Below are positions 8,293 to 24,126 of a stretch of DNA of 64,000 nucleotides, one piece after another. Position numbers and translations under genes: made by a program. The stretch is from Owenweeksia sp. (lineage in GTDB: Bacteria; Bacteroidota; Bacteroidia; Flavobacteriales; Schleiferiaceae), in assembly GCA_028277105.1 (NCBI GenBank), contig JANQHO010000017.1, forward strand, positions 1 through 64,000, given 5' to 3'. The number at the start of each line of letters is the position of its first letter. Position 1 is the first letter of the stretch. The notes below the pieces were generated by a model. It was given only the letters and a program-made list of their open reading frames with translations, had not been told where the DNA came from and ran no database searches.

Positions 8293-8324
8293 AACCCGGC
8301 TCACAGATGTGAGCCGGGTTTTTT
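8293..8324 (+). terminator. Rho-independent terminator after tRNA-Val and the cargo-PorP-OmpA operon
   Basis: Hairpin acccggctcac-agat-gtgagccgggt followed by a T-run. Confidence 0.7.
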
Positions 8325-8446
8325 CATGGAATGCAGCGTTGAAACGAATGTTTCAGAAAGCGAAAATCCATGAAAAAACCGAGGGCGGAGCGTGCGGGTT
8401 GCTTTTATGCTTGGGTACCAGGGCCTCTAAACCTGGATCATACAAT

Positions 8447-8464
8447 AATCCAGTATCGCCCACA
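8447..8464 (+). repeat. 18-bp perfect direct repeat of the tRNA-Val 3-prime end (aatccagtatcgcccaca; other copy at 8266-8283). Candidate att-site scar or degenerate pseudo-tRNA remnant.
   Basis: Exact 18/18 identity with the T-arm plus acceptor 3-prime half of the upstream tRNA. The sequence preceding it (8383-8446) has a tRNA-like acceptor start (gggcgga) but no proper cloverleaf. Confidence 0.7.
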
Positions 8465-8618
8465 CTGAAAACCAAAAGATTAAAGCCGAGAAATTTTCTC
8501 GGCTTTAATTTTTTATATCTGCATTACAAAGTAATCTATAGGACTGTGAGTCTCCCAGTGGACAAGTTTATTACCACACCACCACAATAAATCTGGTACA
8601 GAAGGTTAGAATAACAAT

Positions 8619-11111
8619 CTATAAGACGCTTAATTTTAAGACTGTTCCATCGTTTCCTTTATGATGAATTACCAGAAAATAAAGCCCTGGGCGAATAGTG
8701 CTCGGAATAGTAACCGTAAAATCCGATTGGTGTCTTTCGTCTTTTGAGAGAAGCGTTTTCCCATGTACATCAACCATCTGGAAACTATCGACCGTCTGAT
8801 TATTGAGAACCGTTATGGTTTCACCTCTGGAAACGGGGTTTGGGTAAACCTGTTGTGGTATACCGCTAAACATATCTTCGGTTACTCCTAATGATTCGCC
8901 TAAGCATTCAAAATTCTTGGCATTATAAAATTGATGTATGTTTTGAGCGTGATCTTTTAGCTTTATCACAGAATTGAACGATTCCAATGGTGCTACAGCA
9001 CTATCACGCCCATAAATAAGAGCTAGATCAATACACCTTTCTTCATCTATTGCTACTCCACCTATATCTATTAAGGCTAAAGTTCTGGTATCAGGAGAAT
9101 TAGCTGGACTCTCATACCAATTAGCCGCATCATTATAGGCAAAATTGGTAGAAGAAGAGGACGCAGGTATTTCATAGCCGTCTCCATTATTTAAATTAAA
9201 TAAACCCGATGGATTTTCTACTGTCAGCGGAGAGCTATCTTTCCAGCGTCTATTCATAATATTTATATAATCCCCTGAAGACTGAGGATCAGTTGTTGCC
9301 GTTGGACCAAATGAACTAGTGTTATTATAATACATAAAACCTGATAAGGAGTCTGAGAGAAAAGTTCCACCAAAGGCAGGAGGGTTTGATCCATAGCCAA
9401 GTGGCCCTTCATCATAAGAATCACCATTATATGCATAAAATACTCCATTGACACTATCGCTCCCAATCACATCATCAAAAGCAGCTCCTATATCATAATC
9501 TGTCCATAGGCCTAATTTTAATTGGTTGTAATTCAATCCAGAACGGTTATGAATTTTGTAGGTTAGAAATATCGAATTCTCAAATTCTGCCACAGCAGAA
9601 TCATAAGCGTACATCATACCATGGATTTCCATTTGCATAGAGTTGGTGTTGCTCTCAGTTTTTGATCCTCGTGTATCATTCATAATAAAATAGAGTGCTT
9701 CATCTCCTCGAATATCGGGGTGTTCCCCTAGTGATGGTTCATATACACCGTTGTAATTGTAGTCCTCAAACGGAGCTAAGAAGCGTGCTTCTCCCTTGGC
9801 CTGATCACCATTTCCAGGCCAGTCAGCTATTCCAAAGGGTGCAGAATAAGTAGGATTATTGAATTGCTGCTGATGCGTTTGAATCTCAGATTTGGTTACT
9901 TTCCAAACATGATTATACTTACTGACATATAGCGAATCATATACCTGAGAAATCGGTCCAGAATAAAAATCTACACCATTTTGACCATAAGTTTCGATGC
10001 ATAGAAGTGTATCAAAATTTTGATCAATACCACCAAGCCAGAGCCCAGAAGCAAAAATACTTTGTTTACCTCCTGCTTTTAGGCCGACAAAAGAGAATCC
10101 TTGATTAAAGTTTTTGTACAAACCACCATTCGGAGACACACCAGCTTGGATTTGATTGAGTGATAGTTCTTCATAAGTATGATCTAACGCCAATTCAGGG
10201 AAAAATTGAAATATCGAGTGTTCCTTTCCTATCCAAATATTTCCGAATTTCCCTGCCGTAAAAGCTGAAATAGGACTATTATAAACATAGGTTGTTGCAA
10301 TTGTATCAAGAGAAGAGGTAGTGATTTTGAGTACACCACCTGACCCAAATCCGCTAATCAGTGGGGTATAAATTGTTTGACCGACAGCGATAATTTTCGT
10401 GTGAGTAATGCTATTGGCTAAAGAAAAATCGTCTATCCAACTTTGCCCATCGTAATGGGAAATACCAGCATCGTGCGCACTCCATAAATTACCAGTTATA
10501 TCTACTGCAAAATCTATGGTTTGATTATTTACAGCAGACCCCATGGATGGTAATGTATCCCAGACAGAATTCGCATAAAAATGTCCTGGCTCGTTATTAC
10601 TACGAGTTCCTAGATACAGAGTATTTTGAAAACTTTTTAATGTAAACCCTCCGATGTTGTGATTGGTAAAGGCATTACCTGTAAATTCAAAAACATCTTT
10701 AGAAAAGAAGCTACCACCACCAAGACACCAGAGTGTATTATTAGCCGTGAAAACGATTTCAACAACGGGTGTTGTCAGCCCTTGTGTTGGTAAAATAGTC
10801 CATATGCTTCCATCAAATTTATAAACGCCATTGTCTGTTCCGATCCAAATTGTATCACTATTTTCTTCAATAGTATGAATCGTCCCTGGGGACGGAACAA
10901 TAGCATTGCTAGGATATTTAGTGATTTGATTTCCATTATTGGCAATATGTACTATCTCGAAATCCGTTGCTACCCAAATTTCACCTAGATCGGTTTCTAC
11001 AATATCATTTATATCATTTAAATCTTGGCCATAAAAAATACCACTTTGAGCGGTTAAGAAAGAAGAATATAAAAAAGTGAACCAGACAAAAAGGGAGCTT
11101 TTTTTGTTCAT
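8619..11111 (-). CDS. Secreted beta-propeller-repeat protein with a C-terminal T9SS type-A sorting domain (Por_Secre_tail)
   Basis: Signal peptide from the internal Met (MNKKSSLFVWFTFLYSSFLTAQ). The ORF-table start at 11144 is probably too long. C-terminal ...VYPNPVSRGETITV...LYFLVIHHKGNDGTVLKLSVL matches the TIGR04183-like CTD. Repeated W/G-rich propeller-blade-like segments. Confidence 0.75.
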   Translation of the reverse strand: MNKKSSLFVWFTFLYSSFLTAQSGIFYGQDLNDINDIVETDLGEIWVATDFEIVHIANNGNQITKYPSNAIVPSPGTIHTIEENSDTIWIGTDNGVYKFDGSIWTILPTQGLTTPVVEIVFTANNTLWCLGGGSFFSKDVFEFTGNAFTNHNIGGFTLKSFQNTLYLGTRSNNEPGHFYANSVWDTLPSMGSAVNNQTIDFAVDITGNLWSAHDAGISHYDGQSWIDDFSLANSITHTKIIAVGQTIYTPLISGFGSGGVLKITTSSLDTIATTYVYNSPISAFTAGKFGNIWIGKEHSIFQFFPELALDHTYEELSLNQIQAGVSPNGGLYKNFNQGFSFVGLKAGGKQSIFASGLWLGGIDQNFDTLLCIETYGQNGVDFYSGPISQVYDSLYVSKYNHVWKVTKSEIQTHQQQFNNPTYSAPFGIADWPGNGDQAKGEARFLAPFEDYNYNGVYEPSLGEHPDIRGDEALYFIMNDTRGSKTESNTNSMQMEIHGMMYAYDSAVAEFENSIFLTYKIHNRSGLNYNQLKLGLWTDYDIGAAFDDVIGSDSVNGVFYAYNGDSYDEGPLGYGSNPPAFGGTFLSDSLSGFMYYNNTSSFGPTATTDPQSSGDYINIMNRRWKDSSPLTVENPSGLFNLNNGDGYEIPASSSSTNFAYNDAANWYESPANSPDTRTLALIDIGGVAIDEERCIDLALIYGRDSAVAPLESFNSVIKLKDHAQNIHQFYNAKNFECLGESLGVTEDMFSGIPQQVYPNPVSRGETITVLNNQTVDSFQMVDVHGKTLLSKDERHQSDFTVTIPSTIRPGLYFLVIHHKGNDGTVLKLSVL

Positions 11112-11199
11112 AAGTCTAAGTTTTAGTTGAAGTTCAAAAATCAAAAAAATATCTGAAATAAATGAGTTTGTTGGGATTTAAGTGATTTTAAAAACAAAT

Positions 11200-12230
11200 A
11201 GGTATTCGTAAAGATAAAGTTTGTAGATTTCGGTCAAATATTTATTGATGGAATTAGCTCAATTTTTTAAGACTTAAAGTGATGAAGACTCTTATATAGA
11301 GTTGTTTAAAGAATTTCGCGATAGTCAGGGGGTTACTTGCAAGCGTTGTGGCAGACAACAGCATATGTGGATTCATACTGTGCGAAAATATGAATGTATG
11401 TCCTGCGACTATCAAACCACTCTTCGCAGCGGCACTCTGTTTCAAGCCTCTAAAATACCTTATCATTATTGGATTTATGCTATTGTTTTAATGACTTACA
11501 CCAAGAAGAGCATTTCGGCTTTAGAGATGCAACGTCAATTAGGTCATAAACGTTATGAACCCATTTGGGCTATGATGCATAAAATCCGTAAGGCTATGGG
11601 TAATCGAGATTCACGGTATCAGTTGGAGGAATTGATAGAATTAGATGATGGCTTTGTAAAAACCTTTAAGGATAAAGATGGTGATGATTCAAATGGTAAT
11701 AAGCTAGGTAGAGGAACTCAGGAAAACTCCAATATACTGGTTATGTGTAGGGTGGATAGCGGAAAATAGGATGGTAATAAGAAGAAGGATACGGCTTTTA
11801 GATATGTGAAAATGCAACTAACTCACAATCAAAAAGGGGAAGAGTTTGAAAGAATCGTTGGATAATATGTTGACCCTTCATCTTGTCTAATCTCTGATGG
11901 TTTTAGATCTTTTAATCAACTAGACCTTAAAATGAAAAGTCACCTTCAACTTACAGTAAGCCCTAAACTCAGTAGTAAGGTTATACCTTGGGTGCATACC
12001 ACTATTTCCAACCTCAAAAGGCAATTATTAGTAGTGCATTCGGGGATAAAAGAATCTTATATATAGAATTACCTCGATGAGTTCTGCTATAAAACCAATA
12101 GAAGGTATTTTGGATTTAAACTATTCGATAGGGTCATGGTAGCCGCGGTTACTTTTTCTCCCTTAATCAATGACACTTTATGAAAACCGATACCCATTTA
12201 GATTAAATCTTACACTCTATTGGTGCCCTT
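11200..12230 (+). mobile_element. Degraded IS1595-family insertion sequence (boundaries approximate; IRs not confidently identified)
   Basis: Contains a transposase pseudogene with the IS1595 zinc-ribbon and ISXO2-like DDE domains. Locally AT-rich. Confidence 0.55.
11302..12183 (+). pseudogene. IS1595-family transposase, N-terminally truncated (TTG start) and broken by frameshifts or stops after aa 155
   Basis: ...CKRCG...YECMSCDYQTTLRSGTLFQASKIPYHYWIYAIVLMTYTKKSISALEMQRQLG...MMHKIRKAMG is the Zn_Tnp_IS1595 signature. ...IELDDGFV starts the DDE domain. Downstream, in other frames, ...VKMQLTHNQKGEEFERIV... and ...HLQLTVSPKLSSKVIPWVHTTISNLKRQLLVVHSGIKESY.NYLDEFCYKTNRRYFGFKLFDRV are the IS1595 C-terminal motifs. 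Confidence 0.75.
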
Positions 12231-12399
12231 TAGAAGTATTTAAGGCTGGACAGATGCATAATGAACAGGCTTCATTACTGCTTTAGCGGGAACTGTTGCT
12301 CTTACAGATGCGGAGGAGGAAAGGGAATTTGAAAAAGTCATCGTCTGTAAGTTTATCCACCCTTTTGAGGGAAAAAAGCACGATTACAGCTATGGAGTT

Positions 12400-12594
12400 T
12401 TGCTTGATGTAAAGGCAGCAGCAGGACATTATTCCAGTGGATGGTTACTATATTATGATTGTTGTGGTGATTATTCGGGATTCTCTGGCTCAGAACATAA
12501 AAGGGCTGAAAATCTTATTAAAAAGTATGTTGCTGATGGACTAGTCGAACTTCGGGAACTTAAAGTAGGTAAAAGATATTCCGAAAATATGTAG
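12400..12594 (+). CDS. Hypothetical protein (TTG start; the frame is open back to 12265). Possibly the N-terminal half of a frameshifted gene continuing in 12573-13100.
   Basis: ORF only, no recognisable motif. Its stop at 12592-12594 lies inside the upstream open extension (from 12573) of the next ORF, in a different frame. Confidence 0.25.
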   Translation: MLDVKAAAGHYSSGWLLYYDCCGDYSGFSGSEHKRAENLIKKYVADGLVELRELKVGKRYSENM

Positions 12595-12698
12595 CAAAAC
12601 ATCTTAATACATCTAGAGAATTAACTCAAGAGAAAATTCAGGAGATTGAAGAACAATTAGAAGAAAAATCTACAACACAGAGATTAAAAGCAGATGAT

Positions 12699-13100
12699 GT
12701 GCTTGGAAAAGCAATTATCCTTGAACAATTGACGTATTATGCTTTTAGTAAAAATAACAAAGCTAGCTCAGTTGAGTGGAGTATTAACAAGTCGAATGGG
12801 GAAATTGATATTTTGGTTAAAATTGTTGATGCAATAAAGATTATCGAATGTAAGGTAAATCCAAATAATAGTGACCTCCCAAAAGAATATGAAAAACTAC
12901 TGGTTAATCTAGAAAGGTACTCTGAAAAAGATAAGAATGGTGAATTTTGGTTTTGGATAAAACCTTCTCCTCAAAATACAAAATGGCTAGAGGATAATGG
13001 AATTCGATACGAGTACGTTAACCCAACAGAAAGGTTACCTATTATTCTTAATGGTATTAATCCTAACAATATGAAATTTGTCATGAACTACCAATATTAG
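12699..13100 (+). CDS. Hypothetical small protein with a possible PD-(D/E)xK nuclease-like motif (GEIDILV...IIECK). GTG start; frame open from 12573.
   Basis: hhD(x13)ExK spacing in ...NGEIDILVKIVDAIKIIECKVN... AT-rich islet context next to the IS remnant. Confidence 0.3.
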   Translation: MLGKAIILEQLTYYAFSKNNKASSVEWSINKSNGEIDILVKIVDAIKIIECKVNPNNSDLPKEYEKLLVNLERYSEKDKNGEFWFWIKPSPQNTKWLEDNGIRYEYVNPTERLPIILNGINPNNMKFVMNYQY

Positions 13101-13250
13101 CATTTTGTAAAATGCGAACTCCTCTTCTAAGTTTTCAATACATCAAAATTTGTAAGTCTCTCAATTTCAATTAACAAATTGACAAAATGGTTCGATACTG
13201 TTCCTCTTACCTCCACCAAGCTGCACAAGCAGCTACATTGCTACTGGCAG

Positions 13251-13280
13251 CCCCGCCTCTCTGGCGGGGTTGTTTTGTTT
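13251..13280 (+). terminator. Rho-independent terminator (ccccgcc-tctct-ggcgggg followed by ttgttttgttt)
   Basis: 7-bp GC stem followed by a T-rich tail, downstream of the small-ORF islet. Confidence 0.5.
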
Positions 13281-13433
13281 GCGCCCCTCGCAAGTCATTG
13301 TGTTTCAGGATTAAATCAAAGGGTTATTAATATCATTTCTCTGCTCGAAGAAGGGACATTGTCTTTATAGAGTAATAGTAGGAACCCATTTTCTGTACAG
13401 GCCATAATTGTTTTACCTTAGCCGCAGATATCC

Positions 13434-13508
13434 GGGGAGTTAGCTCAGTTGGTTCAGAGCACCGTCTTGACAGGGCGGGGGTCGCTGGTTCGAATCCAGT
13501 ACTTCCCA
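13434..13508 (+). tRNA. tRNA-Val (anticodon GAC). CCA is encoded at 13509-13511.
   Basis: Acceptor GGGGAGT/ACTTCCC (one G-U pair), D-arm GCTC..GAGC, anticodon stem CCGTC/GGCGG with loop TTGACAG, T-arm GCTGG TTCGAAT CCAGT. Confidence 0.85.
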
Positions 13509-13565
13509 CCAGGCTGTATTTACAGCACCACATCTATGGGCAGGGTTGTTTTGTTTGTAGTTTTT

Positions 13566-16500
13566 TTAGTCGTCAAGCCCCTTTTCCAACACTTCTTTAA
13601 TACCGGCCAGGTTTTCGCTGAAGATCATCATTTGATTAAGGATCTGTCCCATTTCATTTTTGGCACCCAAAGCTTTGAGTTTGTTATTTTTCCGGAATAT
13701 CTGTTTAATGCTCTCCCAGCGCTCTAACTCTTCCTTACTCAAAGTGTCAGTCAGCTCCTTGTACTTTAAGAGGTTGGCCTCAGCGGCCGAAGTAAGGGTT
13801 TGGGATTCACTTTCGTAGTGAGCGAGGAGCAGGGTTTGCAATTCCTCGTCATTCATCACTGGCACTACTTTGGCTACCAGTTTGTTCATATCCCGGTAAG
13901 ACCCCTGCAGCTTAAAAGCAGGTTCGGTGCGGTAGCTGTCTTCCATAGCAGCCGAATCGATGTAGGTGGCATTCACCTTCAATACGGTATCCCTGATCGC
14001 CATCACCTTTTTCAACACCGACAAATAATCCTGTATCTCCTGGCTGGTGTGGTTTCCCTTAAACAGAACTCCCTCTTCGTTGCCAGTTTCGGCTATCTGG
14101 ATAAAACTGTATACGTCCTCAAAATACTTACTGCTGAGCTGGTTTAGTACAGAGTTAGAGGTAAGGGCATTTTCCATCAGGCTAAGTTTAAAGAGGGTAG
14201 CGGTATTGCCAATGATGTCACCTAGGTTGTAGATGTCGGCCCGGTTGGCCAGCATATCGGGGATCTGAAATTTTTCACCGCTTTCGGTATAGGGGTTTCC
14301 GGCCATAACAACACAGAATTTATTCCTGCGCAGATCATAAGTTTTAGCCTGGCCATTGTACACGCCTTCTATTCTACGGGTGCCATCGGCCAGGGAGATG
14401 AATTTTTGCAGGAACTCTGGGTTGCAATGCTGGATATCGTCCAGGTACAGCATTACATTGTTGCCCATTTCAAAGGCCAGGTTGAGTTTTTTCAACTCTT
14501 CGCGGGCTGCGGCATTGTTAGCCGACATGGGATCTATCGAAGTTACATCGTATCCTATGGCTGGGCCGTTAACCTTTACAAAAACCAGGCTCAGGCGGTT
14601 GGCGATGTATTCCATCAGGGTGGTTTTACCGTAGCCGGGCGGGGAAACTAGCAAGAGCATTCCCATGCGATCGGTACGCTTTTTATCGCCCAAGGCCCCG
14701 ATCTGTTTAGCGAGGTTATCGCCAAAAAAAGGCAGGTACACCTGATCGATCAGTTTATTCCGTACAAAAGAAGAGAGCACACGGGGCTGGTAATCTTCCA
14801 GTTTGAGTTCCAGTTTAAGTTCTTCTATCACCTGGTGTTTGGCCTTTTGGTATTCTTTGTAGGCGGGTACTTCCTGCTCGTAATAACTTTGCAGTTGATG
14901 TATGAACTCGTGGTAATCAAAGACAAATTTTCCTTCTTTTACAGTAGGGTGTTCTCCTTTAATTCCTCTGATGATCTCGTAGGGTGAAATATGGTGGAGC
15001 CTGGAAACGGACTCATCTTTAAAGAGTTCCAGGCAAACCACTTCATCTGCATAGGCCAGTAAATTCGGTTTTGTATTTTTTATGAAAGAGGTGGTCCATT
15101 GCCGTATCAACTGTATCCTTGAACTGTACTTTTCTATATCCTGATAACCCGACCTGAATTTCTGGGCCGCCTGTTTTTTTTCCAGTTCATGCACAAATTC
15201 ATCGTAACATTCCCGGGCTAAAATGCTTATCTCAAATTCGTTATTTTGTTTGAGCTCGTTAAACAGGTATTGAGCAATAGAGTGAGCAGGCTCAGGGGCG
15301 AAGAGCTGGCTGATTCTCGCAAAAGCGGCAATTTTTTCCGCCAGCACTTCGAGGGTGTAATCGTATTCGGTAGATTGGGGGAAGATCTCCAATACGGCCC
15401 CTGAGGCTTTGATAGCTTGGTTGAGGTCGATTCTTTCCGCTTCCGGCAAAGAATACCAGAAATACTGGGCCCATGCCCTGAGACCGGGGCGGTAACGCAA
15501 TAAGCCCAATTCGTGGTGTTTGGTAACCAGGGTCTTTAATATTTTGAGAGCGTCCAGGTCGTGTACACCTTTAATATAACCCGCGGAATAGCTTTCGCTG
15601 ATCTCTGCTTTTACCATGGCCGCCAACTCATCTTCTGATGTATTGTATAGTTCCGGAGAACTGTTTTGGGCAAATATCTTATAAGCCAGGTAGGAGGCGC
15701 GGTAGATCTGAGAGTTTTCCGAAACCAGTTCCTGGTTCCAGAAGCGTTGGGATTGATTCAAGATTTCATTCTCAATGGAATGGTATAGGTTGGTTCCCGT
15801 AAGGTGGTACTGTAATTGGTCGTCCTTGTATACGATAGTGAGATCTATGGGTTGTTTGTTAACCGCAAACTTGTGGTTTCCCAATTTGATGATATTATCA
15901 CCATCCTCAAATAGCTCAATAGTGTCTTTCAGTTTGCGCAAAGTATCTTCCCGTACCACTTTCAGTTTGGTCTCCAGCATTTCGGCTTTGCCAACATCAT
16001 CCAGGGATTTGAGTTGCTCTACGATATCTCTGAGCTTATTGATCATCAGGTCGGAGGCAAAATAGCCATTGATAGCTTCCGGGCTTTTAAAGGAAAGGGC
16101 CTTTTTTTCGACCCCTTTGAGAATACGTTCCGAGGCATTTTGGAGAGCTAAGGCCTTTTTATTGCGGGCCTCGACCAGGAAATTCTTTTTCATTTCAAAG
16201 CTGCCATACACTTCTTCACGCTTTTCAACGATCTGGGTGATGAACTCTTCGAAATTGGCAAAACGGCCCTCCAAATCTTCCAATTGAAGGGATATTTTAT
16301 TGAGATATTCATCACATTTTTCAGGGGTGTCCGCTAGGTCGAGGTAGTTGGTTACGCTTTGGTTTACCAGTTTTAACTGAGCGGTAAATTCAGCTTTGGC
16401 CTCTTTGCTGCCCAGCGTTTTGATCTTGTTTTTTATGCTGGCCTTGAGCTGATTGAGGGTAGCGAAGATGAGGGAAATATTGTCGATGATCTCGGTGGTG

Positions 16501-18467
16501 TGCGAAGTGTCTTCAATGTTGAGGTTGGACACAATATCGATGAGCATTTCCAGGTCAACGCCTATTTGGGCGACCTCTTCTTCCAATTTTTTGATCTCTA
16601 CAACTTTTTCAAGGCCTACTATAGCCCCTTGTTTTTCCTCTATGCGCAAGTGATAGGGAGCCAGGGCTTTTTTATCCAGCAAAAAGGTAGCGCAGCGACT
16701 GGAGATCTTTTCGGTTTGTTCAGAAACAGAGTCCTCCAGTTCAGATATGTAACCCACATCGATGTAGCGGATGTCCTTTAAGCTGATAGCTTCGCCCCGC
16801 AACGAGCGCAGTTGGGAGAGGGCATAGACAAAATCATCGATATTCCGGAAGGAAGTGGCTTTTATCTTACCCAATAAGACATCTGCTTTTTCCTGGAGGT
16901 TGTCGATGGCATTACGGGCAACCTTCCTCAGGGCTACCACCTTTTCAAATTCGTCTATGGCAGCATCTGCAGCCGCTTTGATCTCTTTTACCGGTTCGGC
17001 CAGGACAAAGGTTTCCTTTTGTGATATCCAATAGTAACTGTCTACAATGTCTTTGGCCAGTTTGGAAATATCGGCATACAGGTCGGCATAGCTATCTTCC
17101 TTGTTTAAGAGGGTAATAAGAGCATGGCATTCGGCCGTAGCCTTTACAATGTCTTTATTGCCAATTTTATAGAGCAGCGAATCACTATGCTGGGAAGGGA
17201 TGTAATTCCCTTTCATAAAGGGTGTTTGCCAGATTTGCACTAAATGGTGTTTAGTCTGCTCATTTTCATTGCGGAAGTAACACAACTCTCCATTTTGTAG
17301 GCGGGTAAAGCCATTGCAAATAATGGGAGTCATAATTTCCTGATCGATTACGTTATAATGGATCAGGAGATAGGTGCCGCGGTGTGCCCCATAAAAAACA
17401 TAAAGAAAATCTTCGCCATTGGGCGAGGATATTTTTTGCTGGAACTTAATATCCCTGAGATCATTATCTATAATCTTATATTCTCCCGTTTGCAGATAGT
17501 AACCATTCGGGAAAATAATCCCTTGATCGTCAGGTAGCATGACAACAGTATCTTTTATGCTGTCAATCTTTTTAACTTCCTGTGCCTTGTGATTGTAAAC
17601 AAAGTAGCGGGCTTTCTCATGAAAAGGTTTGATCTCAAGGATAATAAGATTGCCCAAATCCGCAAAACGATACTGACCATCATCCAAAGTCTGGTCTCTG
17701 TGCTCTACCTCTTCGATGTAAATCCCCTGGCCATCATCTGTATTGTCTTCAATCTTAATAGTAAGGTCGCCACCAATAGTTTCTACAAAAACTTTATCTA
17801 AAATAGAAATATGGGGGTGTGGTCCATAGCGGTGCATATCACGATTAACTTCCTGCCAGTTAAACTCATGTTGTATAGGGAAGCGGTACTCATGCTCACT
17901 CCTATTGTCTACGTAATGAAGTTTTTCATCTTTAATCAGCCATTTAAAAGTTTTAATGTCATTGTGGATCTCACTGAGTTGAAATACCATGTGGAGGTAA
18001 TTTCCCACTAAGGCAAATTTGGAAAAGATGGTATGCCTGTAATACTTATAAAGGTTGGAGAAATCGGTCAGAAAGGTATCATCCTGTATGAGGTCTAAGC
18101 CCACCTCCTGAAAGTGCTCATCCTTGTAGCGGTAAATACTGAATACATCAGATAAAGTAACTTCTGTACGAAGGCCAAAGTGAACGTTATAGCCAAAAAT
18201 GGAAAGCTCACCAATAGTTACTATATCACGGGCAATACAATTATTATCGGTATTGATACGGTCATTGGCAATCAATTTGGTTTCAATAGCGCCAAAAACT
18301 TTTTTACGCTCCCCGTTTAGTTGGTCCAGGCGGTTGAGCAGCGATTCTTTGTGGGATTGTAGTCGATTTTTGATAATCTCATACGTCCCACCACTCAACT
18401 GGTGTTGCTCTTTATTTTCTTTTTCCTGCATAGAATAATTTAGAAGATGTTGAAAAGGAAACCCCAT
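13566..18467 (-). CDS. Giant (1633 aa) cytoplasmic protein. N-terminal approx 450-aa mixed domain, long alpha-helical/coiled-coil middle, one C-terminal MoxR/dynein-like (AAA_5-type) AAA+ ATPase module, and a 230-aa helical tail.
   Basis: Walker A LLLVSPPGYGKTTLMEY (encoded approx 14619-14660). Walker B VMLYLDDIQH. Sensor/Arg region VVMAGNPYTESGEKFQIPDMLANRADIYNL resembles the MoxR ATQNP..LPEA..DRF block. No second P-loop and no TM helices. Last gene of a tight operon. Confidence 0.75.
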   Translation of the reverse strand: MGFPFQHLLNYSMQEKENKEQHQLSGGTYEIIKNRLQSHKESLLNRLDQLNGERKKVFGAIETKLIANDRINTDNNCIARDIVTIGELSIFGYNVHFGLRTEVTLSDVFSIYRYKDEHFQEVGLDLIQDDTFLTDFSNLYKYYRHTIFSKFALVGNYLHMVFQLSEIHNDIKTFKWLIKDEKLHYVDNRSEHEYRFPIQHEFNWQEVNRDMHRYGPHPHISILDKVFVETIGGDLTIKIEDNTDDGQGIYIEEVEHRDQTLDDGQYRFADLGNLIILEIKPFHEKARYFVYNHKAQEVKKIDSIKDTVVMLPDDQGIIFPNGYYLQTGEYKIIDNDLRDIKFQQKISSPNGEDFLYVFYGAHRGTYLLIHYNVIDQEIMTPIICNGFTRLQNGELCYFRNENEQTKHHLVQIWQTPFMKGNYIPSQHSDSLLYKIGNKDIVKATAECHALITLLNKEDSYADLYADISKLAKDIVDSYYWISQKETFVLAEPVKEIKAAADAAIDEFEKVVALRKVARNAIDNLQEKADVLLGKIKATSFRNIDDFVYALSQLRSLRGEAISLKDIRYIDVGYISELEDSVSEQTEKISSRCATFLLDKKALAPYHLRIEEKQGAIVGLEKVVEIKKLEEEVAQIGVDLEMLIDIVSNLNIEDTSHTTEIIDNISLIFATLNQLKASIKNKIKTLGSKEAKAEFTAQLKLVNQSVTNYLDLADTPEKCDEYLNKISLQLEDLEGRFANFEEFITQIVEKREEVYGSFEMKKNFLVEARNKKALALQNASERILKGVEKKALSFKSPEAINGYFASDLMINKLRDIVEQLKSLDDVGKAEMLETKLKVVREDTLRKLKDTIELFEDGDNIIKLGNHKFAVNKQPIDLTIVYKDDQLQYHLTGTNLYHSIENEILNQSQRFWNQELVSENSQIYRASYLAYKIFAQNSSPELYNTSEDELAAMVKAEISESYSAGYIKGVHDLDALKILKTLVTKHHELGLLRYRPGLRAWAQYFWYSLPEAERIDLNQAIKASGAVLEIFPQSTEYDYTLEVLAEKIAAFARISQLFAPEPAHSIAQYLFNELKQNNEFEISILARECYDEFVHELEKKQAAQKFRSGYQDIEKYSSRIQLIRQWTTSFIKNTKPNLLAYADEVVCLELFKDESVSRLHHISPYEIIRGIKGEHPTVKEGKFVFDYHEFIHQLQSYYEQEVPAYKEYQKAKHQVIEELKLELKLEDYQPRVLSSFVRNKLIDQVYLPFFGDNLAKQIGALGDKKRTDRMGMLLLVSPPGYGKTTLMEYIANRLSLVFVKVNGPAIGYDVTSIDPMSANNAAAREELKKLNLAFEMGNNVMLYLDDIQHCNPEFLQKFISLADGTRRIEGVYNGQAKTYDLRRNKFCVVMAGNPYTESGEKFQIPDMLANRADIYNLGDIIGNTATLFKLSLMENALTSNSVLNQLSSKYFEDVYSFIQIAETGNEEGVLFKGNHTSQEIQDYLSVLKKVMAIRDTVLKVNATYIDSAAMEDSYRTEPAFKLQGSYRDMNKLVAKVVPVMNDEELQTLLLAHYESESQTLTSAAEANLLKYKELTDTLSKEELERWESIKQIFRKNNKLKALGAKNEMGQILNQMMIFSENLAGIKEVLEKGLDD

Positions 18468-18492: not shown

Positions 18493-20550
18493 TCATCCTA
18501 TTTTTTTGTCTGATAAACCTAAGGCCTTGGCTAGGTTGGATAAGTTCAGGAAGTTATTTCTTTCGTCAGCATTGGAAGCTTTGTCCTGTAATTCCAGTAG
18601 AATGTTGGCAATCGTCAGGTTTCTGATATTTTCTGAGGAGATACCATATTTCTCAGCAAACTCTTTGATCTTATCTAAAAGGTTGCCTTTTACATCATCA
18701 TTTCCTAAAATAGCGTCTTTTACATCCTGTATGCTGTTGCTATGGTCAACCAGGCGATCTATGCCCTTGGCTTTAGTGATCTGACCGATGATATTTTCAA
18801 AGAACATGGTTTCACCCCCTACAATATCAATGTTAGCGGATTTCAAGGCTTCACCTATTACCAGAGCCTGGGCGTTGGCAATATCTTTTTGAATGGTGAT
18901 ACCGGCCAGTTCAATTTCTTTCTCTTTATCCAGGCGTAGCTTGAATTCTTCGTGGTCTTTACCTACCCCATCGAGTTTCTTCATAGCCTCAGCTTTTTCT
19001 TCTATACCTGCTGCATCAGCCAGGGATTTTTCCTTGATCACTTCAGCTTCAGCTAATCCTTCTTTCTTAATGGCATCAGCTTTAGCTTCTATACCAGAAG
19101 CTTCAGCTTTGGCTTTCTTTTCTATTATTAAAGCCTCAACTACCCCTTTTCGCTCTTCGGCATCTGCTTTAGCATGCATAACCTGTGCTTCAGATAAACC
19201 AATCGTTGCTTCTTCCTTGGCTTGAGCTTCAGCCAAAGTCTTACGGGCTTCAGCTTCTTTTTCACTCGCTTCTTTATGGGCTTGAGCTTCAATATTAATT
19301 TCTTCTGCTTTTTGCTTGGCAGCTTCTTTCTCAGCTTCTGCTGCTTTTATACGCTTAATCAAGGATTCTTGAGCGTCAGCTTCAGCTTTGGTTATGGTCA
19401 CTTGTTTATCACGGTCGGCTGTCTTAAAAGCCTCAATGTCCTTCATGTTTTCCTGTTCTTCCACCACGCCTTTTTCCAGCATTACACGATCCCTGATAAC
19501 ATCTTGAATGTTCTTCTTTTCAACTTCTACTACTTTGTCTTTCTCAATAGTGGCTAGCGACACAACTCTTTCTCTTTCGGTAGCCTCCAGCAAACGGTCT
19601 TTTTCAACGCGTTCTGTTTCCACCGCATCCGTTCTTTGCTTGTTCTTTGCTGCAATGATTACCTGCCTTTCTTTATTCTCTTCTGCAACTTTTACTTTTT
19701 CCTCTGTTTGGATACGGGCAGATTCTGATTTCAGACGTTCTTCTTCATTTACCTTTTGGATTTCTGCTTCTTCGCGGGCTTTGATGTTGGCAATTTCTCT
19801 TTTTTGCTGTTCTTCTTTTTCAGCTAATTGCTTGTCCAGCTCTAATATAGCTTCGCGGGCTTCAACATCTTGTTTTCTGATGACCTTTTCCTCATCACGT
19901 TTAATCAGATTGGCCTTTATATTTTGAGCAGTAGTGAGTTCCGTGATCTTTTTGATACCCTCTGCATCAAGAATATTATCCGGCTTTAAGAAAGAGATGG
20001 GGGTTTGCTCCAAAAAGTCAATGGCACAATCGTCAAGGACATAACCGTTGAGGTCTGTTCCTATGATATTGATGATCTCATCCCTGAATTCCCTACGGGC
20101 TTCGTATAAAGCACTGAATTCGAATTTTTTACCTACGGTTTTTAAGGCTTCAGAAAATTTAGCTTCAAAAAGGTCTTCTAAAGTTTTAAAATCTGAAGCC
20201 CTGGAAACACCTATAGTCTGGGCTACATTGATAATATCGTCTTTGGATTTATTGACCCTTACAAAAAAGGCTACTTTAATGTCAGCTCTCATATTGTCTC
20301 TGCAAATGAGGCCATCATCACCGAGCCTTTCAATCTGAATTTTTTTTACGGAGATGTCCATAATCTCCAGTCTGTGAACAACGGGTACAACGTATAACCC
20401 TTTGTCGAAGGCAACTGCGGCACCTCCAAAACCTGTTCTTACCAATGCTTTGCCCTGTGGGATTTTTCTATAAAAAGCGGCAATGATAATCACCAGGGCA
20501 AGGAGGGTGATTACGATAACGCCAATAACGGTTAGTGCAATAGTGCTCAT
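18493..20550 (-). CDS. Flotillin-family SPFH/band-7 protein (YqiK/FloT-like) with a long EA-rich coiled-coil C-terminal region
   Basis: N-terminal TM, then SPFH core ...VRTGFGGAAVAFDKGLYVVPVVHRLEIMDISVKKIQIERLGDDGLICRDNMRADIKVAFFVRV..., then AEAEAK-type repeats typical of flotillins. Confidence 0.85.
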   Translation of the reverse strand: MSTIALTVIGVIVITLLALVIIIAAFYRKIPQGKALVRTGFGGAAVAFDKGLYVVPVVHRLEIMDISVKKIQIERLGDDGLICRDNMRADIKVAFFVRVNKSKDDIINVAQTIGVSRASDFKTLEDLFEAKFSEALKTVGKKFEFSALYEARREFRDEIINIIGTDLNGYVLDDCAIDFLEQTPISFLKPDNILDAEGIKKITELTTAQNIKANLIKRDEEKVIRKQDVEAREAILELDKQLAEKEEQQKREIANIKAREEAEIQKVNEEERLKSESARIQTEEKVKVAEENKERQVIIAAKNKQRTDAVETERVEKDRLLEATERERVVSLATIEKDKVVEVEKKNIQDVIRDRVMLEKGVVEEQENMKDIEAFKTADRDKQVTITKAEADAQESLIKRIKAAEAEKEAAKQKAEEINIEAQAHKEASEKEAEARKTLAEAQAKEEATIGLSEAQVMHAKADAEERKGVVEALIIEKKAKAEASGIEAKADAIKKEGLAEAEVIKEKSLADAAGIEEKAEAMKKLDGVGKDHEEFKLRLDKEKEIELAGITIQKDIANAQALVIGEALKSANIDIVGGETMFFENIIGQITKAKGIDRLVDHSNSIQDVKDAILGNDDVKGNLLDKIKEFAEKYGISSENIRNLTIANILLELQDKASNADERNNFLNLSNLAKALGLSDKKIG

Positions 20551-20556
20551 GATTGT

Positions 20557-21264
20557 TTATGAATAGTTAGTATAGGGTTGAACGTAGTAGTATTTTTTAT
20601 CTGAGGATTGCTTGATCACCAGTATTTGTTCCCCTGAATTTATGAGGGAACCATCCAGTGATTTGGCGTAAAACTTTATGGGGCTATCCAGTACTTTAAC
20701 TTCAACGGTGCCAATTCGTTCCCCTTCCAGTTGAGAGAGGCTTATACCTGCTCTGCCAAGTAGGTCAATGGATTGATCGCCCTTGCTGTTGAACTTTTTA
20801 AACAGCCGTTTAAAAGGGCTGGTCACCATCTTATTGATATACAGGGCGGGAATCATGGCACCAAAGAAAAAGAGGAAGCCAATATTGTTGTCATAAGTTC
20901 CGGTAAGGTAGGTACCTGTTACCGTAATGGTCCACCAGATCAACACCCAAAAGGTGAAAGTGAACATGAGTGGCAGGCCTACAAAATTGAAGTAGATGAG
21001 AAAGATCTGAAACCAATTGAGCTTACCTTTTTTTCTTACAGCCTGGTCTTTAGCTTCAGCATTAGTGATGTCTTCAAAATCTACTGACTCTGAAGAGCCT
21101 AAGTCAGCTTCAGCACCCACATCAATGTCTACATCAATATCCGTATCTATATTGGTATCCAAACCTGTAATGATGGCAAATATCCAGTAGATTACAACCA
21201 GCAGTAGTAGTATGCTAAGCCCAATATTGACTTCGGAGAAAAAAACTTCCTTAATAAAGTCCAA
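20557..21264 (-). CDS. YqiJ/NfeD-like membrane protein (TM helices plus C-terminal OB-fold), the usual flotillin partner
   Basis: Several TM segments, an acidic D/I/D/V-rich loop, and a C-terminal ...GTVEVKVLDSPIKFYAKSLDGSLINSGEQILVIKQ... beta-rich NfeD-like domain. 6-bp gap to the flotillin gene. Confidence 0.6.
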   Translation of the reverse strand: MDFIKEVFFSEVNIGLSILLLLVVIYWIFAIITGLDTNIDTDIDVDIDVGAEADLGSSESVDFEDITNAEAKDQAVRKKGKLNWFQIFLIYFNFVGLPLMFTFTFWVLIWWTITVTGTYLTGTYDNNIGFLFFFGAMIPALYINKMVTSPFKRLFKKFNSKGDQSIDLLGRAGISLSQLEGERIGTVEVKVLDSPIKFYAKSLDGSLINSGEQILVIKQSSDKKYYYVQPYTNYS

Positions 21265-21266: not shown

Positions 21267-21998
21267 TTACTCCTCTTTAGATGGGTTGGTACCGTCTTCA
21301 CTTAAACCCAACTGCGCTTTTAGTTTTTCCAGGTCATCTTCGGCATTAGCTTCTGAAGTGTCCACAATCTTATTCAACTCATCGTCAATAGATTTGGACT
21401 CATTGGCCATATTGCCGTAGGCATCAGCTAAAGCTTCATCCTGAGCCACTTTGTCTTTCATGCGCTCAAGCATAGAAACGGTGCTGCTGCTATCTATTTC
21501 TGCCATTTGTTTGTTCAGGTTTTTGGTGGCTTTGCTCACCTTAACGCGGGCAGTTAGGGTTTTGAGTTCATTTTCCCATTTACTGATATTGGACTTAATG
21601 GTCTGGATAGTAGTGTTTAACTGATTAGCAGACTCCTCAAATTTTTGAGCTTCTTTTTGAAGTCTCTCCACCTGCTTAAGGCTTTCTTCCTTTTTGACTA
21701 AAGCTTCCTTGGCTAAGCGATCTGCTTCGGCAATATCCAGTTCTCCTCTACTTGCTTTTTTAAGGATAAGAACGGCTTTGTTTTTATAATCTTCAGCTTT
21801 AGATTGGGATTCTTCCATATCGTTTTTGGCACGTATGGCAAGAGCCTTAACCTGGGCTAAGGCTTCCATGCTTTTGGCCAGATCTTCTTTCATGTCCCTT
21901 ATACCTTGCTGGGTTAGTTTAATAGGGTCTTCCATTTTATCCACAGCAGCGTGAGCTTCAGCTTGTCCTATTTTAAAAAGTCTTTTGAAAATATTCAT
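21267..21998 (-). CDS. PspA/IM30/Vipp1-family (ESCRT-III-like) protein
   Basis: MNIFKRLFKIGQAEAHAAVDKMEDPIKLTQQGIRDMKEDLAKSMEALAQVKA... is the canonical PspA_IM30 N-terminus. All-helical coiled coil, 243 aa. Confidence 0.8.
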   Translation of the reverse strand: MNIFKRLFKIGQAEAHAAVDKMEDPIKLTQQGIRDMKEDLAKSMEALAQVKALAIRAKNDMEESQSKAEDYKNKAVLILKKASRGELDIAEADRLAKEALVKKEESLKQVERLQKEAQKFEESANQLNTTIQTIKSNISKWENELKTLTARVKVSKATKNLNKQMAEIDSSSTVSMLERMKDKVAQDEALADAYGNMANESKSIDDELNKIVDTSEANAEDDLEKLKAQLGLSEDGTNPSKEE

Positions 21999-22002: not shown

Positions 22003-22398
22003 TTAATTTTTAGAAAATTTTATGATTTGATCCGAGTATTCGCTTAGTAATAAACTCAAGGAGTTTAAGGAAGCTTCCAGTTCGTTAAGGTCGAGGTTCT
22101 CCAATTGTAAAGTGTCTCTGAAGATCACCTTATCACCAGTTTCATTCAGTACAAAAGCTCCATGAATAATGTCCCGGTTTTTTTGAAGCAGGCTTTTGAA
22201 AATCTCCAGTGAAGGAAAGTTTACCGTAAAGATGAATTGTTCGATAATTAGGATAGGGTAGGCTACACCTATGATCAAATTCTTAATTCCGGCCGACTCT
22301 TTTTGAATAACCATAACCCCATTCAATTCATCTTCCAGCGTAATCAAAAATTCGAGTTCCTGAATGTATTCTTTAGTCTTTTGATACTGGTCTTTCAT
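22003..22398 (-). CDS. Small cytoplasmic protein, first gene of the PspA operon (possibly YbjN/YjfI(DUF2170)-like PspA partner)
   Basis: 131 aa, no TM. 4-bp gap to pspA-like gene. The YbjN/DUF2170 call rests on weak sequence resemblance plus gene context; it is not a homology hit. Confidence 0.35.
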   Translation of the reverse strand: MKDQYQKTKEYIQELEFLITLEDELNGVMVIQKESAGIKNLIIGVAYPILIIEQFIFTVNFPSLEIFKSLLQKNRDIIHGAFVLNETGDKVIFRDTLQLENLDLNELEASLNSLSLLLSEYSDQIIKFSKN

Positions 22399-22648: not shown

Positions 22649-23413
22649 ATGACTTTTTTTGGGAAGAATATCAAAAAGATCAGAGGGGTAAAGAGATTGA
22701 GCCAGCAGGCTTTTGCTGATCTATTCGACTTAAAAAGAGGCACTTTGGGAGCCTACGAGGAGGGGAGAAGTGAACCTAAACTGGAAACTATTATCCGGAT
22801 TGCTAATTATTTTAGTGTTTCGATCGATAGCTTGCTAACGCATGAGCTTACGGTAAACCAGTTACTGCAATTTAAAGGTGATATTGCAGCTGCTATTGAT
22901 GAAAACCAGCTTAAAGAGTTTACCCAAATACCTTGCCTTACGGTTGACAAAATAAGTGAGTACTGCAAAAATTTTACGGATAAGGGGCTTATTGAAACCC
23001 TGCCCAAACTTCAGCTACCGGTGATGAGCAAAAGGAAATTGCGGGGCTATATCATCCATAATTTAGAGATGGCCCAAAACGAAAGTGGGCTCTATCCTAA
23101 AGATGTGGTTATAGGGGAAGCCATACCTAAAATAAGGATCAGTGATCTGGAGGAGGGAACACTGAGTATGTTGTTATTGGAAGAAGATTTTTTGATACGC
23201 AGAATATTTATTAACGACAATAAAATAGTCCTCAAAGCTGACCATGAGAGTGTACCTGACAAAGAGATCAACCCAAAAGAATTGAAAGAATTATGGGTAG
23301 TAAAGTACATTTTTAACCATAGGCTTCCTTACCGTACAAATTCGCTGGAAGAAAGGGTCAGAGTATTAGAACAGGAGTTTACGAAGTTAAAATCGTCACT
23401 TGGTGATAAGTAG
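22649..23413 (+). CDS. XRE-family (Cro/C1-type HTH) transcriptional regulator with a C-terminal domain of unknown function
   Basis: ...IKKIRGVKRLSQQAFADLFDLKRGTLGAYEEGRSEPKLETIIRIANYFSVSIDSLL... is the HTH_3 signature. Divergent from the PspA-flotillin operon. Confidence 0.75.
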   Translation: MTFFGKNIKKIRGVKRLSQQAFADLFDLKRGTLGAYEEGRSEPKLETIIRIANYFSVSIDSLLTHELTVNQLLQFKGDIAAAIDENQLKEFTQIPCLTVDKISEYCKNFTDKGLIETLPKLQLPVMSKRKLRGYIIHNLEMAQNESGLYPKDVVIGEAIPKIRISDLEEGTLSMLLLEEDFLIRRIFINDNKIVLKADHESVPDKEINPKELKELWVVKYIFNHRLPYRTNSLEERVRVLEQEFTKLKSSLGDK

Positions 23414-23430: not shown

Positions 23431-24126
23431 TTATAACCCCAGGTATTTCTGAAGCTCAGCTTTATAAGCCTCACTAACGGGAATGTAATGTTTACCGATC
23501 ACGATGCGATTTCGTTCTACGGTGGTAAGGTGCTGCAGACTAACGATGTAGGAGCGGTGTACTTTCATAAAGGCGTTTCGAGGCATTTTTTCCTCTAGTG
23601 ACTTTAAGCTCATCAAAGTCATAATAGCGCGGCCATCACTGAGGTAGATCTTTACGTAATCCTTTTGGTTTTCTATGAAAAGTATGTCCTTCCAGACGAT
23701 CTTGATCAATTTGTAGTCTGCTTTTACAAAAAAGTAATCTTCATTTTTCCGGTATGGCGCGTCCTTTTTCAAGGAAAAGTATTCTTTGGCCTTGGTGGCT
23801 GAGTTTAGAAAATCTTCAAAGCTGAAAGGTTTCAGTAAATAGTCCAGGGCATGAACCTTATAGCTTTCCAGAGCATACTGCTCGTAAGCGGTAGTAAATA
23901 TTACCCGGGTTTGTTCCGGCAGCAAACGAGAAAGATTCATTCCGCTTAAGTCGGGCATATTTATGTCCATAAAAACCAGGTCTACTGGTTTTTCATGCAG
24001 GGATTCCAGGGCCTTTAATGAGCTGTAGTAAACTCCTTGTAGTTCCAGAAAGGAAACTTTTCCAATGTATTCCTTTACCAGTTCAATAGCCGGTGGCTCG
24101 TCATCTATGGCTATACATTTTATCAT
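23431..24126 (-). CDS. LytTR-family two-component response regulator
   Basis: REC domain MIKCIAIDDEPPAIE...D plus a C-terminal LytTR DNA-binding domain. Confidence 0.85.
   Translation of the reverse strand: MIKCIAIDDEPPAIELVKEYIGKVSFLELQGVYYSSLKALESLHEKPVDLVFMDINMPDLSGMNLSRLLPEQTRVIFTTAYEQYALESYKVHALDYLLKPFSFEDFLNSATKAKEYFSLKKDAPYRKNEDYFFVKADYKLIKIVWKDILFIENQKDYVKIYLSDGRAIMTLMSLKSLEEKMPRNAFMKVHRSYIVSLQHLTTVERNRIVIGKHYIPVSEAYKAELQKYLGL

Follow-up and report, generated by a model that had tools for sequence, protein, structure and literature searches.

What does a very large ATPase do when its gene closes an operon that also encodes PspA and a flotillin, and which of these two would it act upon? 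The window analysed here (the whole stretch of 64,000 nucleotides) presents this question in the open reading frame at 13566..18467 (1633 codons plus stop; minus strand, as are all features given below unless stated otherwise), a member of the DUF3686-DUF7902-AAA+ family that carries the name 'DNA repair ATPase' at NCBI. The true start is probably M13 (nt 18431) rather than the first codon; it is where the identical database entry and every close homologue begin, and it gives 1621 aa. More than 5300 homologues of the 1633-aa protein were found at E<=1e-5, and relatives with the DUF3686-DUF7902-AAA+ arrangement are about 1500-2000 aa long, with DUF7902 in mid-protein and one AAA+ module, a description that the open reading frame fits. 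It also contains the family motif set SPPGYGKT / DDIQH / GNPYTESG...NRAD, and the query aligned collinearly over its full length with 73 representatives in which these motifs are invariant. Conservation was judged on 74 full-length 50%-cluster representatives having 28-49% identity to the query. We found no transmembrane segment in the open reading frame, as the original prediction had held (the 19-residue Kyte-Doolittle mean peaks at 1.06), and the gene product is a soluble cytoplasmic multidomain protein of about 1620 aa. Searches of PDB sequences, whether started from the protein alone or from a profile of 80 sequences, returned only matches of about 35-60 residues at the P-loop, to p97, RuvB and Rix7, so by sequence the protein has no solved relative.

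Structure prediction gives the domain order as a beta-propeller, a helical-bundle stalk, a beta/alpha neck, one AAA+ module and an extended helical lid. The N-terminal domain had been described as possibly beta-rich, and both AF2 and Foldseek now point to a beta-propeller at aa ~60-415 (17223..18290). This lies within DUF3686 (PF12458; aa 43-479, E=4.8e-179, score 596 bits where the cut-off is 25, with positions 2-448 of the 448-position profile aligned); the N-terminal AF2 model (pLDDT 88) has one helix (28-58) ahead of some 27 beta-strands spread over 64-414, the propeller strands having pLDDT >90, and every Foldseek match obtained with this region was a beta-propeller. The stalk that follows, aa 431-852 (15912..17177), is modelled as 13 helices, each 15-58 aa long, and takes in DUF7902 (aa 600-683, E=4.5e-24, Pfam). 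A central helical coiled coil of roughly 700 aa had been expected here, and the helical part of that expectation stands, the middle ~720 aa of the open reading frame being mostly helical; by a crude test, however, heptad periodicity of the AF2 helices is weak (z up to 2.9, 2 of 13 helices), and because of this the idea of one long coiled coil was dropped. We instead describe the ~420-aa stalk as predicted helical bundles with no single coiled coil, to which the neck adds a small beta domain (aa 859-897) and then an all-alpha domain (aa 901-1148; together 15024..15893, AF2 DSSP), with D848, G863, E917, G967, H969 and D972 listed as its invariant residues.

The AAA+ alpha/beta core, aa ~1230-1414 (14226..14780), was modelled at pLDDT 90 and is the best-conserved part of the protein, with 54-72% identity across the family. 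Its P-loop (aa 1271-1283, LLLVSPPGYGKTT) is the only one, as predicted, no second GK[ST] motif being found in the open reading frame. Within it the Walker A motif SPPGYGKTT occupies aa 1275-1283 (14619..14645), S1275-T1282 being invariant in the 74 representatives. The Walker B motif and sensor block that had been picked out by eye were located as MLYLDDIQH at aa 1339-1347 (14427..14453; D1343, D1344, Q1346 and H1347 invariant) and as the putative sensor-1/arginine-finger block AGNPYTESGEKFQIPDMLANRADIY at aa 1389-1413 (14229..14303; N1391 and R1409 invariant). Between beta2 and alpha2 lies a conserved loop, GPAIGYDVTSIDPMSANNAA, at aa 1301-1320 (14508..14567), where clade-7 AAA+ proteins carry their helix-2 insert, and between alpha3 and beta4 AF2 DSSP assigns a pre-sensor-1 beta-hairpin at aa 1365-1378 (14334..14375; two strands, aa 1365-1370 and 1373-1378). 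The core is not strictly C-terminal, as had been supposed, since it is followed by a helical extension of ~220 aa, the lid and C-terminal domain at aa 1415-1633 (13569..14225); the single MoxR-like module itself stands. Within this extension QGSYR (aa 1521-1525, nt 13893-13907) is invariant; it is a candidate for the sensor-2 arginine motif, which in MoxR proteins is of the 'GxSPR' type, and sits ~110 residues past beta5 and behind an inserted helical segment. Walker A and B, N1391, R1409 and QGSYR are invariant in alignments of 74 and of 80 diverse sequences; far from degenerating in orthologues, the Walker motifs are thus retained throughout, and the module appears from its residues to be catalytically intact.

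With regard to the kind of AAA+ protein this is, Pfam AAA_5 (PF07728) scored 33.1 bits, above its cut-off of 22 (E=6.6e-8), the generic AAA profile slightly less at 28.5 bits, and the closest solved structures to the module are those of CbbQ and NorQ (depositor labels MoxR Rubisco activase and NorQ hexamer), both members of the MoxR/AAA_5 clade. The AAA+ fold is supported by the AF2 model and by this above-threshold Pfam match, and the module is best modelled as being of MoxR/AAA_5 (dynein-midasin) type. A single-sequence phmmer search with it retrieved 909 proteins among 1.84 billion. The helix-2 beta-hairpin of the MoxR clade is not predicted, AF2 DSSP giving a short helix and loop without strands at aa 1301-1320. 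A VWA/MIDAS partner is the usual MoxR co-factor; no VWA match was found among the operon proteins or the scanned neighbours in the window, and across the six distant loci described below there was one VWA gene (Myxococcus, opposite strand), the other five having none. The earlier analogy with Vps4 and PspF did not hold: a Vps4 or classical-clade identity was rejected, as there is no MIT domain and no classical-clade AAA fold, and so was a PspF-type enhancer-binding protein, there being no Sigma54_activat match in Pfam or NCBIfam, no GAFTGA and no HTH. An SMC or dynamin identity was likewise rejected, the 1633-aa protein giving no such match in Pfam or NCBIfam.

The operon in the window runs CesT - PspA - YqiJ-like - flotillin - AAA+, with gaps of 2-25 nt, and the ATPase gene is indeed its last, as had been proposed. 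The CesT/Tir-like chaperone (131 aa, 22003..22398; Pfam CesT_Tir_1, E=1e-54) comes first, followed by PspA/IM30 (243 aa, 21267..21998; Pfam E=6e-45); the SMC matches seen in the NCBIfam scan belong to the coiled coil of this PspA. The next gene encodes a YqiJ/YuaF-type (short NfeD) membrane protein (235 aa, 20557..21264), in which Pfam YqiJ_N was recognised through orthologues (8 of 16, best E=3.5e-8); its own best PDB match was YuaF, at a non-significant E=0.25. The flotillin-type SPFH protein (685 aa, 18493..20550), separated from the ATPase gene by 25 nt, has a single N-terminal transmembrane segment, with the bulk of the protein following it, a Band_7 domain (E=4.4e-15 with query aa 1-222) and a long EA-rich coiled coil. 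The full-length query gave no Band_7 match, probably owing to this low-complexity region, and the Flot C-terminal profile matched weakly (E=0.62). Divergent from the operon, on the plus strand, is an XRE-type HTH regulator (254 aa, 22649..23413; Pfam HTH_3), for which Table S3 of Ravi et al. gives the label 'cHTH+Protease' (PMC11237479).

Which of these neighbours is constant was assessed in a Bacteroidota-biased sample of 64 loci, each retaining 6 kb or more on the upstream side, and in six further distant loci (Vibrio, Halopseudomonas, Myxococcus, Streptomyces, Acidobacteriota and a PilZ-fused variant). The gene immediately upstream of the ATPase gene, on its strand, encodes a flotillin in 61 of the 64 and in all six distant loci, that is 67 of 70, from at least eight phyla; YqiJ is upstream in 58 of the 64, and gaps in the flotillin/YqiJ operon are often <100 nt. 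Loci with PspA/CesT number 32 of 64 (PspA 32, CesT 30), all from Bacteroidota, and none of the six distant ones; the XRE-type HTH regulator (30 of 64) co-occurs with the CesT-PspA module. The operon without PspA/CesT was found in Planctomycetota, Verrucomicrobiota, Clostridia, Myxococcota, Actinomycetota, Acidobacteriota and Vibrio. At three of the 64 loci (L035, L044 and L055) there was no flotillin neighbour, nor was any other SPFH gene found nearby. The flotillins linked to the AAA+ gene are unusually conserved between phyla, coiled coil included. The conserved partner of the AAA+ gene is therefore the YqiJ/NfeD-flotillin pair, with PspA as an accessory added in a subset of Bacteroidota. 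The emphasis that the original prediction laid on PspA is not supported.

On balance we lean towards a model in which an AAA+ ring with propeller and stalk arms remodels the flotillin/NfeD scaffold or the clients held there. Going by their fold, the AAA+ modules are assumed to form a ring, whose propeller and stalk arms would dock on the cytoplasmic flotillin/NfeD assembly, and ATP hydrolysis would then remodel the scaffold or its clients by opening, disassembling or reloading. Where a CesT-like chaperone, PspA and the HTH regulator are added upstream, as in many Bacteroidota (this window included) and reportedly in some Proteobacteria, the same motor would probably couple flotillin microdomains to PspA-mediated membrane repair. 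We favour this model because of the domain architecture, the conservation of the active site, the gene linkage, the conservation of the linked flotillins, the lack of a transmembrane segment and the literature; scaffold remodelling as such we infer from gene linkage. Counting against it are the missing helix-2 hairpin and VWA/MIDAS partner and the three loci without an SPFH gene, as well as the fact that, to our knowledge, the MoxR proteins characterised so far are maturation or insertion chaperones and not polymer disassemblases.

Alternatively, and somewhat improbably in our view, the protein might be a MoxR-type assembly or maturation chaperone for which flotillin/NfeD is only a docking site, with other sequestered membrane proteins being inserted, matured or extracted there. 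CbbQ and NorQ, whose solved structures come closest, are proteins of maturation or activation, and a beta-propeller is a generic platform for binding proteins. MoxR proteins have been described as chaperone-like (PMC3791482), and flotillin microdomains are reported to confine and stabilise unfolded proteins (PMC11222466). The operon, however, holds no conserved candidate client gene and no VWA/MIDAS adaptor, and conservation of the flotillin over its whole length better fits direct co-evolution with the ATPase.

We regard as unlikely a second scenario, a Vps4-like disassemblase of PspA, in which the AAA+ ring would pull PspA subunits off their polymers and flotillin would provide only the platform. 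PspA and the CesT-like chaperone do share the operon in the window and in 32 of 64 loci. PspA is homologous to ESCRT-III, while a Vps4-like ATPase seems to be missing from bacteria according to a 2025 review (PMC7619361), and Ravi et al. make the Vps4 analogy for other PspA-AAA+ pairs (PMC11237479). The operons that have flotillin and no PspA, described above, place PspA as an add-on to the primary flotillin/NfeD partnership.

An anti-phage or conflict system of abortive-infection-like character, in which the giant ATPase would sense infection with its propeller and act on the membrane by way of flotillin, seems to us very improbable. It is suggested by Vibrio, where the operon sits in an accessory region beside RNA-ligase/KTI12/R2K genes, HipBA and TelA, and where V. 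chagasii and V. vulnificus have copies sharing 89% identity, compared with only 40% for another Vibrio copy, a pattern suggestive of horizontal transfer. Nevertheless, PADLOC models gave no meaningful match for any operon protein, in Flavobacteriaceae the operon is kept, with stable synteny, both within genera and across the family, and the neighbours in distant non-Vibrio loci are housekeeping genes. A DNA repair ATPase, finally, is scarcely credible, coming as it does from database names (Pfam's 'ATPase involved in DNA repair' for DUF3686, and those at NCBI) and from weak RuvB matches that span 35-45 residues at the P-loop at ~20-22 bits against cut-offs of 282-299, while the Pfam scan showed neither a nuclease or helicase domain nor one that binds DNA, the genes conserved nearby encode membrane proteins and a full-text literature search for DUF3686 gave no paper.

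Returning to the remodelling of flotillin/NfeD scaffolds, an AAA+ gene genetically tied to flotillin/NfeD across phyla is an obvious candidate for a regulator or disassembler of flotillin and PspA assemblies. More tentatively, we speculate that the family is the dedicated motor of bacterial SPFH/flotillin scaffolds, a propeller-armed MoxR/dynein-type ring that might open or disassemble cytoplasmic flotillin-NfeD cages and, in CesT-PspA lineages, pass on or recycle PspA (ESCRT-III) at the damaged membrane. This stronger version is possible, though we would not ourselves expect it to hold in full; if true, the family would be a functional counterpart of Vps4 that originated in another AAA+ clade. 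The refinements that matter are flotillin over PspA as the core partner, a MoxR-type over a Vps4-type motor, and a database name, 'DNA repair ATPase', that is unsupported here. Candidate models in which to pursue the question exist in Flavobacteriia, Vibrio, Streptomyces and Myxococcus and probably, going by the literature, in P. aeruginosa as BacE.

The latter case deserves comment. The P. aeruginosa bacABCDEF genes (PA3732-PA3727, 'biofilm-associated cluster') are co-transcribed and co-regulated (PMC10948618) and encode a DUF2170 protein, PspA, a short NfeD, the SPFH protein PaFlo3 and two more proteins (PMC13086221); PA3728, which adjoins PA3729, is listed as 'ATPase' (PMC8190622), and the authors equate the cluster with the six-gene operon of Ravi et al. 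It differs from the operon in the window in that its CesT-like protein is DUF2170 and not CesT_Tir_1, and in being regulated through sigma-54 where the window has a divergent HTH regulator. Cluster look-ups for 20 representatives and a Vibrio-seeded homology search recovered Halopseudomonas and did not list P. aeruginosa, so the equivalence of BacE/PA3728 is literature-based.

Among better known machines, CbbQ and NorQ are small by comparison (solved chains of 267 and 254 residues), the protein described here being about five times bigger, since a propeller and stalk precede its ATPase and the lid carries an inserted segment; the identity of its module to those of CbbQ, NorQ and RavA in the MoxR family, and to midasin/dynein AAA_5 modules, is just 14-17%. 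The FtsH-HflK/C complex, in which an AAA+ protease sits in an SPFH cage, couples an AAA+ machine functionally to an SPFH scaffold, a pairing known here from gene linkage. FtsH belongs to the classical clade and is anchored in the membrane, whereas our protein lacks a protease domain, is soluble and is of another AAA+ type. With Vps4/CdvC and ESCRT-III it shares the concept of an AAA+ gene beside the gene of a polymer-forming membrane-remodelling protein.

The nearest precedent is the CesT/Tir-PspA-YqiJ/YuaF-Band-7/flotillin operon with a 'Betapropeller+Coiled-coil+AAA-ATPase' reported by Ravi et al. in 2024 (mSystems, PMC11237479) and exemplified around ANH61663.1 of Dokdonia donghaensis. Nothing essential differs between that system and the window: the two agree in gene order, in domain architecture and in having a divergent cHTH regulator, and Dokdonia orthologues are 66% identical to the AAA+ protein of the window. 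A remodelling role of a similar kind was already proposed for the operon, and abbreviated YqiJ-flotillin-AAA+ operons, which we recovered independently, were described as well (PMC11237479). Both operon and idea are thus already known from comparative genomics; full-text searches for flotillin with MoxR, as for DUF3686, returned nothing relevant. What this study adds is the proposed MoxR/AAA_5 assignment, the resolution of the coiled coil into predicted bundles and a neck, the finding that the catalytic motifs are invariant, and a quantified linkage in which flotillin is far more constant than PspA.

We note that the large ATPase gene (13566-18467, minus strand) is a genuine ORF of 1633 residues and, as had been read from the DNA, the last of a PspA-flotillin operon, which consists of five closely packed minus-strand genes with gaps of 2-25 nt. 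Ahead of it lie genes for a CesT_Tir_1 chaperone (22003-22398), PspA/IM30 (21267-21998), a YqiJ-like membrane protein of 235 aa (20557-21264; orthologues match YqiJ_N in 8 of 16) and a flotillin-like TM/SPFH/coiled-coil protein of 685 aa (18493-20550), and an XRE-type HTH gene (22649-23413, plus strand) is divergent from the operon. The start is likely nt 18431 (M13), since an identical protein of 1621 aa in a public collection begins there, as do all close homologues at the equivalent position. The full-length flotillin-like protein gave zero Pfam matches, even at E<=10, with Band_7 (E=4e-15, first 222 residues) emerging only once the EA-rich coiled coil was removed, and stored annotations of its orthologues were also blank in 5 of 6 loci; flotillins of these operons can therefore escape automated pipelines.

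A tRNA-Val (GAC) at 13434-13511 (plus strand) is convergent with the large ATPase gene, 55 nt from its 3' end, with a strong terminator-like hairpin nearby (13246-13274, plus strand). The HTH gene is adjoined by two overlapping ORFs (23431-25189, minus strand) that by eye resemble a response regulator of the LytTR type (231 aa) and a membrane histidine kinase (362 aa). Positions 410-8125 (plus strand) hold a cluster of type IX secretion cargo: a Big_9/cadherin-like adhesin of 1621 aa that bears a CHU_C sorting domain, a PorP/SprF protein and a TPR-PD40-OmpA protein. Near it is an 841-aa protein with Por_Secre_tail (8619-11144, minus strand). These genes are in keeping with a Flavobacteriaceae genome.

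The large ATPase is soluble and is built from a propeller followed by a helical stalk and then a neck; as anticipated, it lacks a TM segment, the highest Kyte-Doolittle mean over any 19 residues being 1.06. Pfam places DUF3686 at aa 43-479 (E=5e-179), DUF7902 at aa 600-683, and weak AAA_5 and AAA matches, above their cut-offs, at aa 1271-1396. Two AlphaFold2 models were built from an alignment of 80 diverse family sequences (pLDDT 88.2 for aa 1-1160, 90.1 for aa 1141-1633). The distinct, possibly beta-rich N-terminal part of the original prediction is borne out by a helix (aa 28-58) and some 27 beta-strands in the propeller region (aa 64-414), whereas the long central coiled coil is replaced by 13 helices of 15-58 residues with short loops between them (aa 431-852), a small beta domain (aa 859-897) and an all-alpha domain (aa 901-1148).

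The protein's single AAA+ module is of MoxR type, and its catalytic residues are both intact and invariant. In the model the core is canonical: beta1 (aa 1271-74) leads into the P-loop (aa 1271-1283; a second P-loop was searched for and is absent), followed by beta2 (aa 1295-1300), beta3 (aa 1338-43) with Walker B (aa 1339-1347), a two-stranded pre-sensor-1 hairpin (aa 1365-78) and the predicted sensor block (aa 1389-1413), in which beta4 ends on sensor-1 N1391 and a helix terminating in R1409 precedes beta5 (aa 1411-14). The AAA+ domain called C-terminal is thus present, with its position corrected, as about 220 residues of helices follow it. Among 74 full-length representatives of 28-49% overall identity, S-P-P-G-Y-G-K-T, D1343-D1344, Q1346-H1347, G-N-P (1390-92) and R1409 are invariant in all, as is Q-G-S-Y-R (1521-25) in later alignments. 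The sequences align collinearly all the way from the propeller to the C-terminus, and the AAA+ core is the best-conserved segment (54-72% identity). The module is probably active. It is also a tight, rather isolated family, since phmmer with aa 1150-1633 matched only 909 proteins at E<=1e-3 (358 at E<=1e-30) among 1.84 billion cluster representatives, full-length members spanning 1500-2036 aa. Some family members of about 1840-2050 aa (P0363, P0372, P0381, P0385, P0387-P0389, P0391 and P0407; one such locus is L085 8001-13520) contain a PilZ domain (PF07238), with source names including 'MoxR-like ATPase/Tfp pilus assembly protein PilZ' and Polyangiaceae, which hints that the ATPase is under c-di-GMP control in some lineages.

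Operonic linkage of the large ATPase to NfeD-flotillin is near-obligatory. A motif scan ([ILV]SPPGYGKT plus FxxPDMLxNR) of one genome per species found at least 600 stretches, 588 of them confirmed, and the window's partner proteins were compared with all ORFs of the best 80 loci among them, which come from Bacteroidota, Planctomycetota, Verrucomicrobiota, Desulfobacterota and Clostridia. Among the 64 with at least 6 kb upstream, flotillin lies directly upstream on the same strand in 61, with no SPFH gene found nearby in the other three when checked specifically; YqiJ-like proteins occur in 58, PspA in 32, and CesT-like proteins and the HTH regulator in 30 each. The PspA-carrying loci are all Bacteroidota (Flavobacteriia, Sphingobacteriia, Cytophagia, Bacteroidia); the block is missing from Saprospiraceae, some other Bacteroidota and every locus of the remaining four groups. 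As this sample is skewed toward relatives of the query, PspA linkage is probably rarer family-wide. A second search seeded with a Vibrio member added Gammaproteobacteria, Myxococcota, Actinomycetota, Acidobacteriota and Armatimonadota, where six of six further loci have flotillin directly upstream and none has PspA within the operon. The linked flotillins are strikingly conserved between phyla over their whole length.

In a Halopseudomonas MAG (L082) a divergent polyamine-type operon, DUF2170-PspA-K+ channel-DUF2491-DUF350-DUF1190 (1-3949), lies upstream of YqiJ-flotillin-AAA+ (5245-13331), the two separated by two small genes (DUF6471, Rhomboid). The two PspA-related modules are adjacent but unfused. 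In Aquimarina latercula (L001 8552-9976) the flotillin and AAA+ genes are separated by four small ORFs of 83, 84, 119 and 159 aa, of which three or more have membrane-like hydrophobic segments, and this spacing is 0.5-2.3 kb in several other loci versus 25 nt in the window.

We somewhat favor a model in which the AAA+ module would assemble into a ring, propeller and stalk would dock onto the cytoplasmic flotillin/NfeD assembly, and ATP would power the remodelling of this scaffold, or of what it contains, coupled to PspA-dependent membrane repair where the CesT-PspA-HTH add-on is present, the window included. The PspA/flotillin remodeller proposed earlier is supported in part, for flotillin/NfeD, rather than PspA, is the constant partner. 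Alternatively, the large ATPase might be a chaperone for other clients, with flotillin merely a platform, which agrees with known MoxR biology and which we regard as unlikely. Somewhat less likely still is a PspA-specific Vps4 analogue, against which both the phyletic pattern and the AAA+ clade speak. The Vps4 and PspF analogies are only conceptual. A conflict or defence role is improbable; the operon of Vibrio vulnificus (L081 1-20827) does lie in an apparent accessory region, beside RNA ligase, KTI12/AAA_33, R2K ATP-grasp, HipBA and TelA genes, and this, with V. chagasii and V. vulnificus copies 89% identical and another Vibrio copy only 40%, suggests horizontal transfer, but PADLOC gave no signal. 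That the protein is a DNA repair ATPase is barely credible, the Pfam/NCBI name (PF12458) being its sole support; the domains, the gene neighbourhood and the literature searched offered none, and the family-wide name looks like a propagated legacy label.

Architecture, operon and functional idea are already in print, so the finding is not novel. Ravi et al. described this operon and abbreviated forms without PspA, and inferred chaperone-like or ESCRT-like membrane dynamics; their Dokdonia donghaensis example (Table S3) has exactly the window's gene order, divergent cHTH included, and the large ATPase shares 66% identity with its Dokdonia orthologues. A full-text search found no paper mentioning DUF3686, and according to a 2025 review bacteria appear to have no Vps4-like ATPase (PMC7619361). 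In P. aeruginosa, bacABCDEF is co-transcribed, its products increasing jointly in a bacA mutant (PMC10948618); besides DUF2170, PspA and a short NfeD it includes PaFlo3, an SPFH protein, and two further genes (PMC13086221). PA3728, beside PA3729, is entered as 'ATPase' among genes mutated recurrently in cystic-fibrosis isolates (PMC8190622); going by published descriptions, BacE/PA3728 may belong to the family of the large ATPase. The large ATPase is an attractive candidate motor of bacterial flotillin scaffolds.

In the structure ranking the first matches outside the MoxR/AAA_5 group are ClpA (12.9) and NVL (12.8), with Vps4 structures at 10.8-11.6, and sequence searches of the PDB with the single protein or a profile gave matches confined to the P-loop region. 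What supports 'MoxR-like' is therefore fold and profile, by a modest margin. Unlike ordinary MoxR proteins, the large ATPase has no VWA partner, and its predicted structure lacks the helix-2 beta-hairpin, in whose position stands a strongly conserved loop (aa 1301-1320). Compared with the solved chains of CbbQ and NorQ, it is about five times as long, at 14-17% identity.
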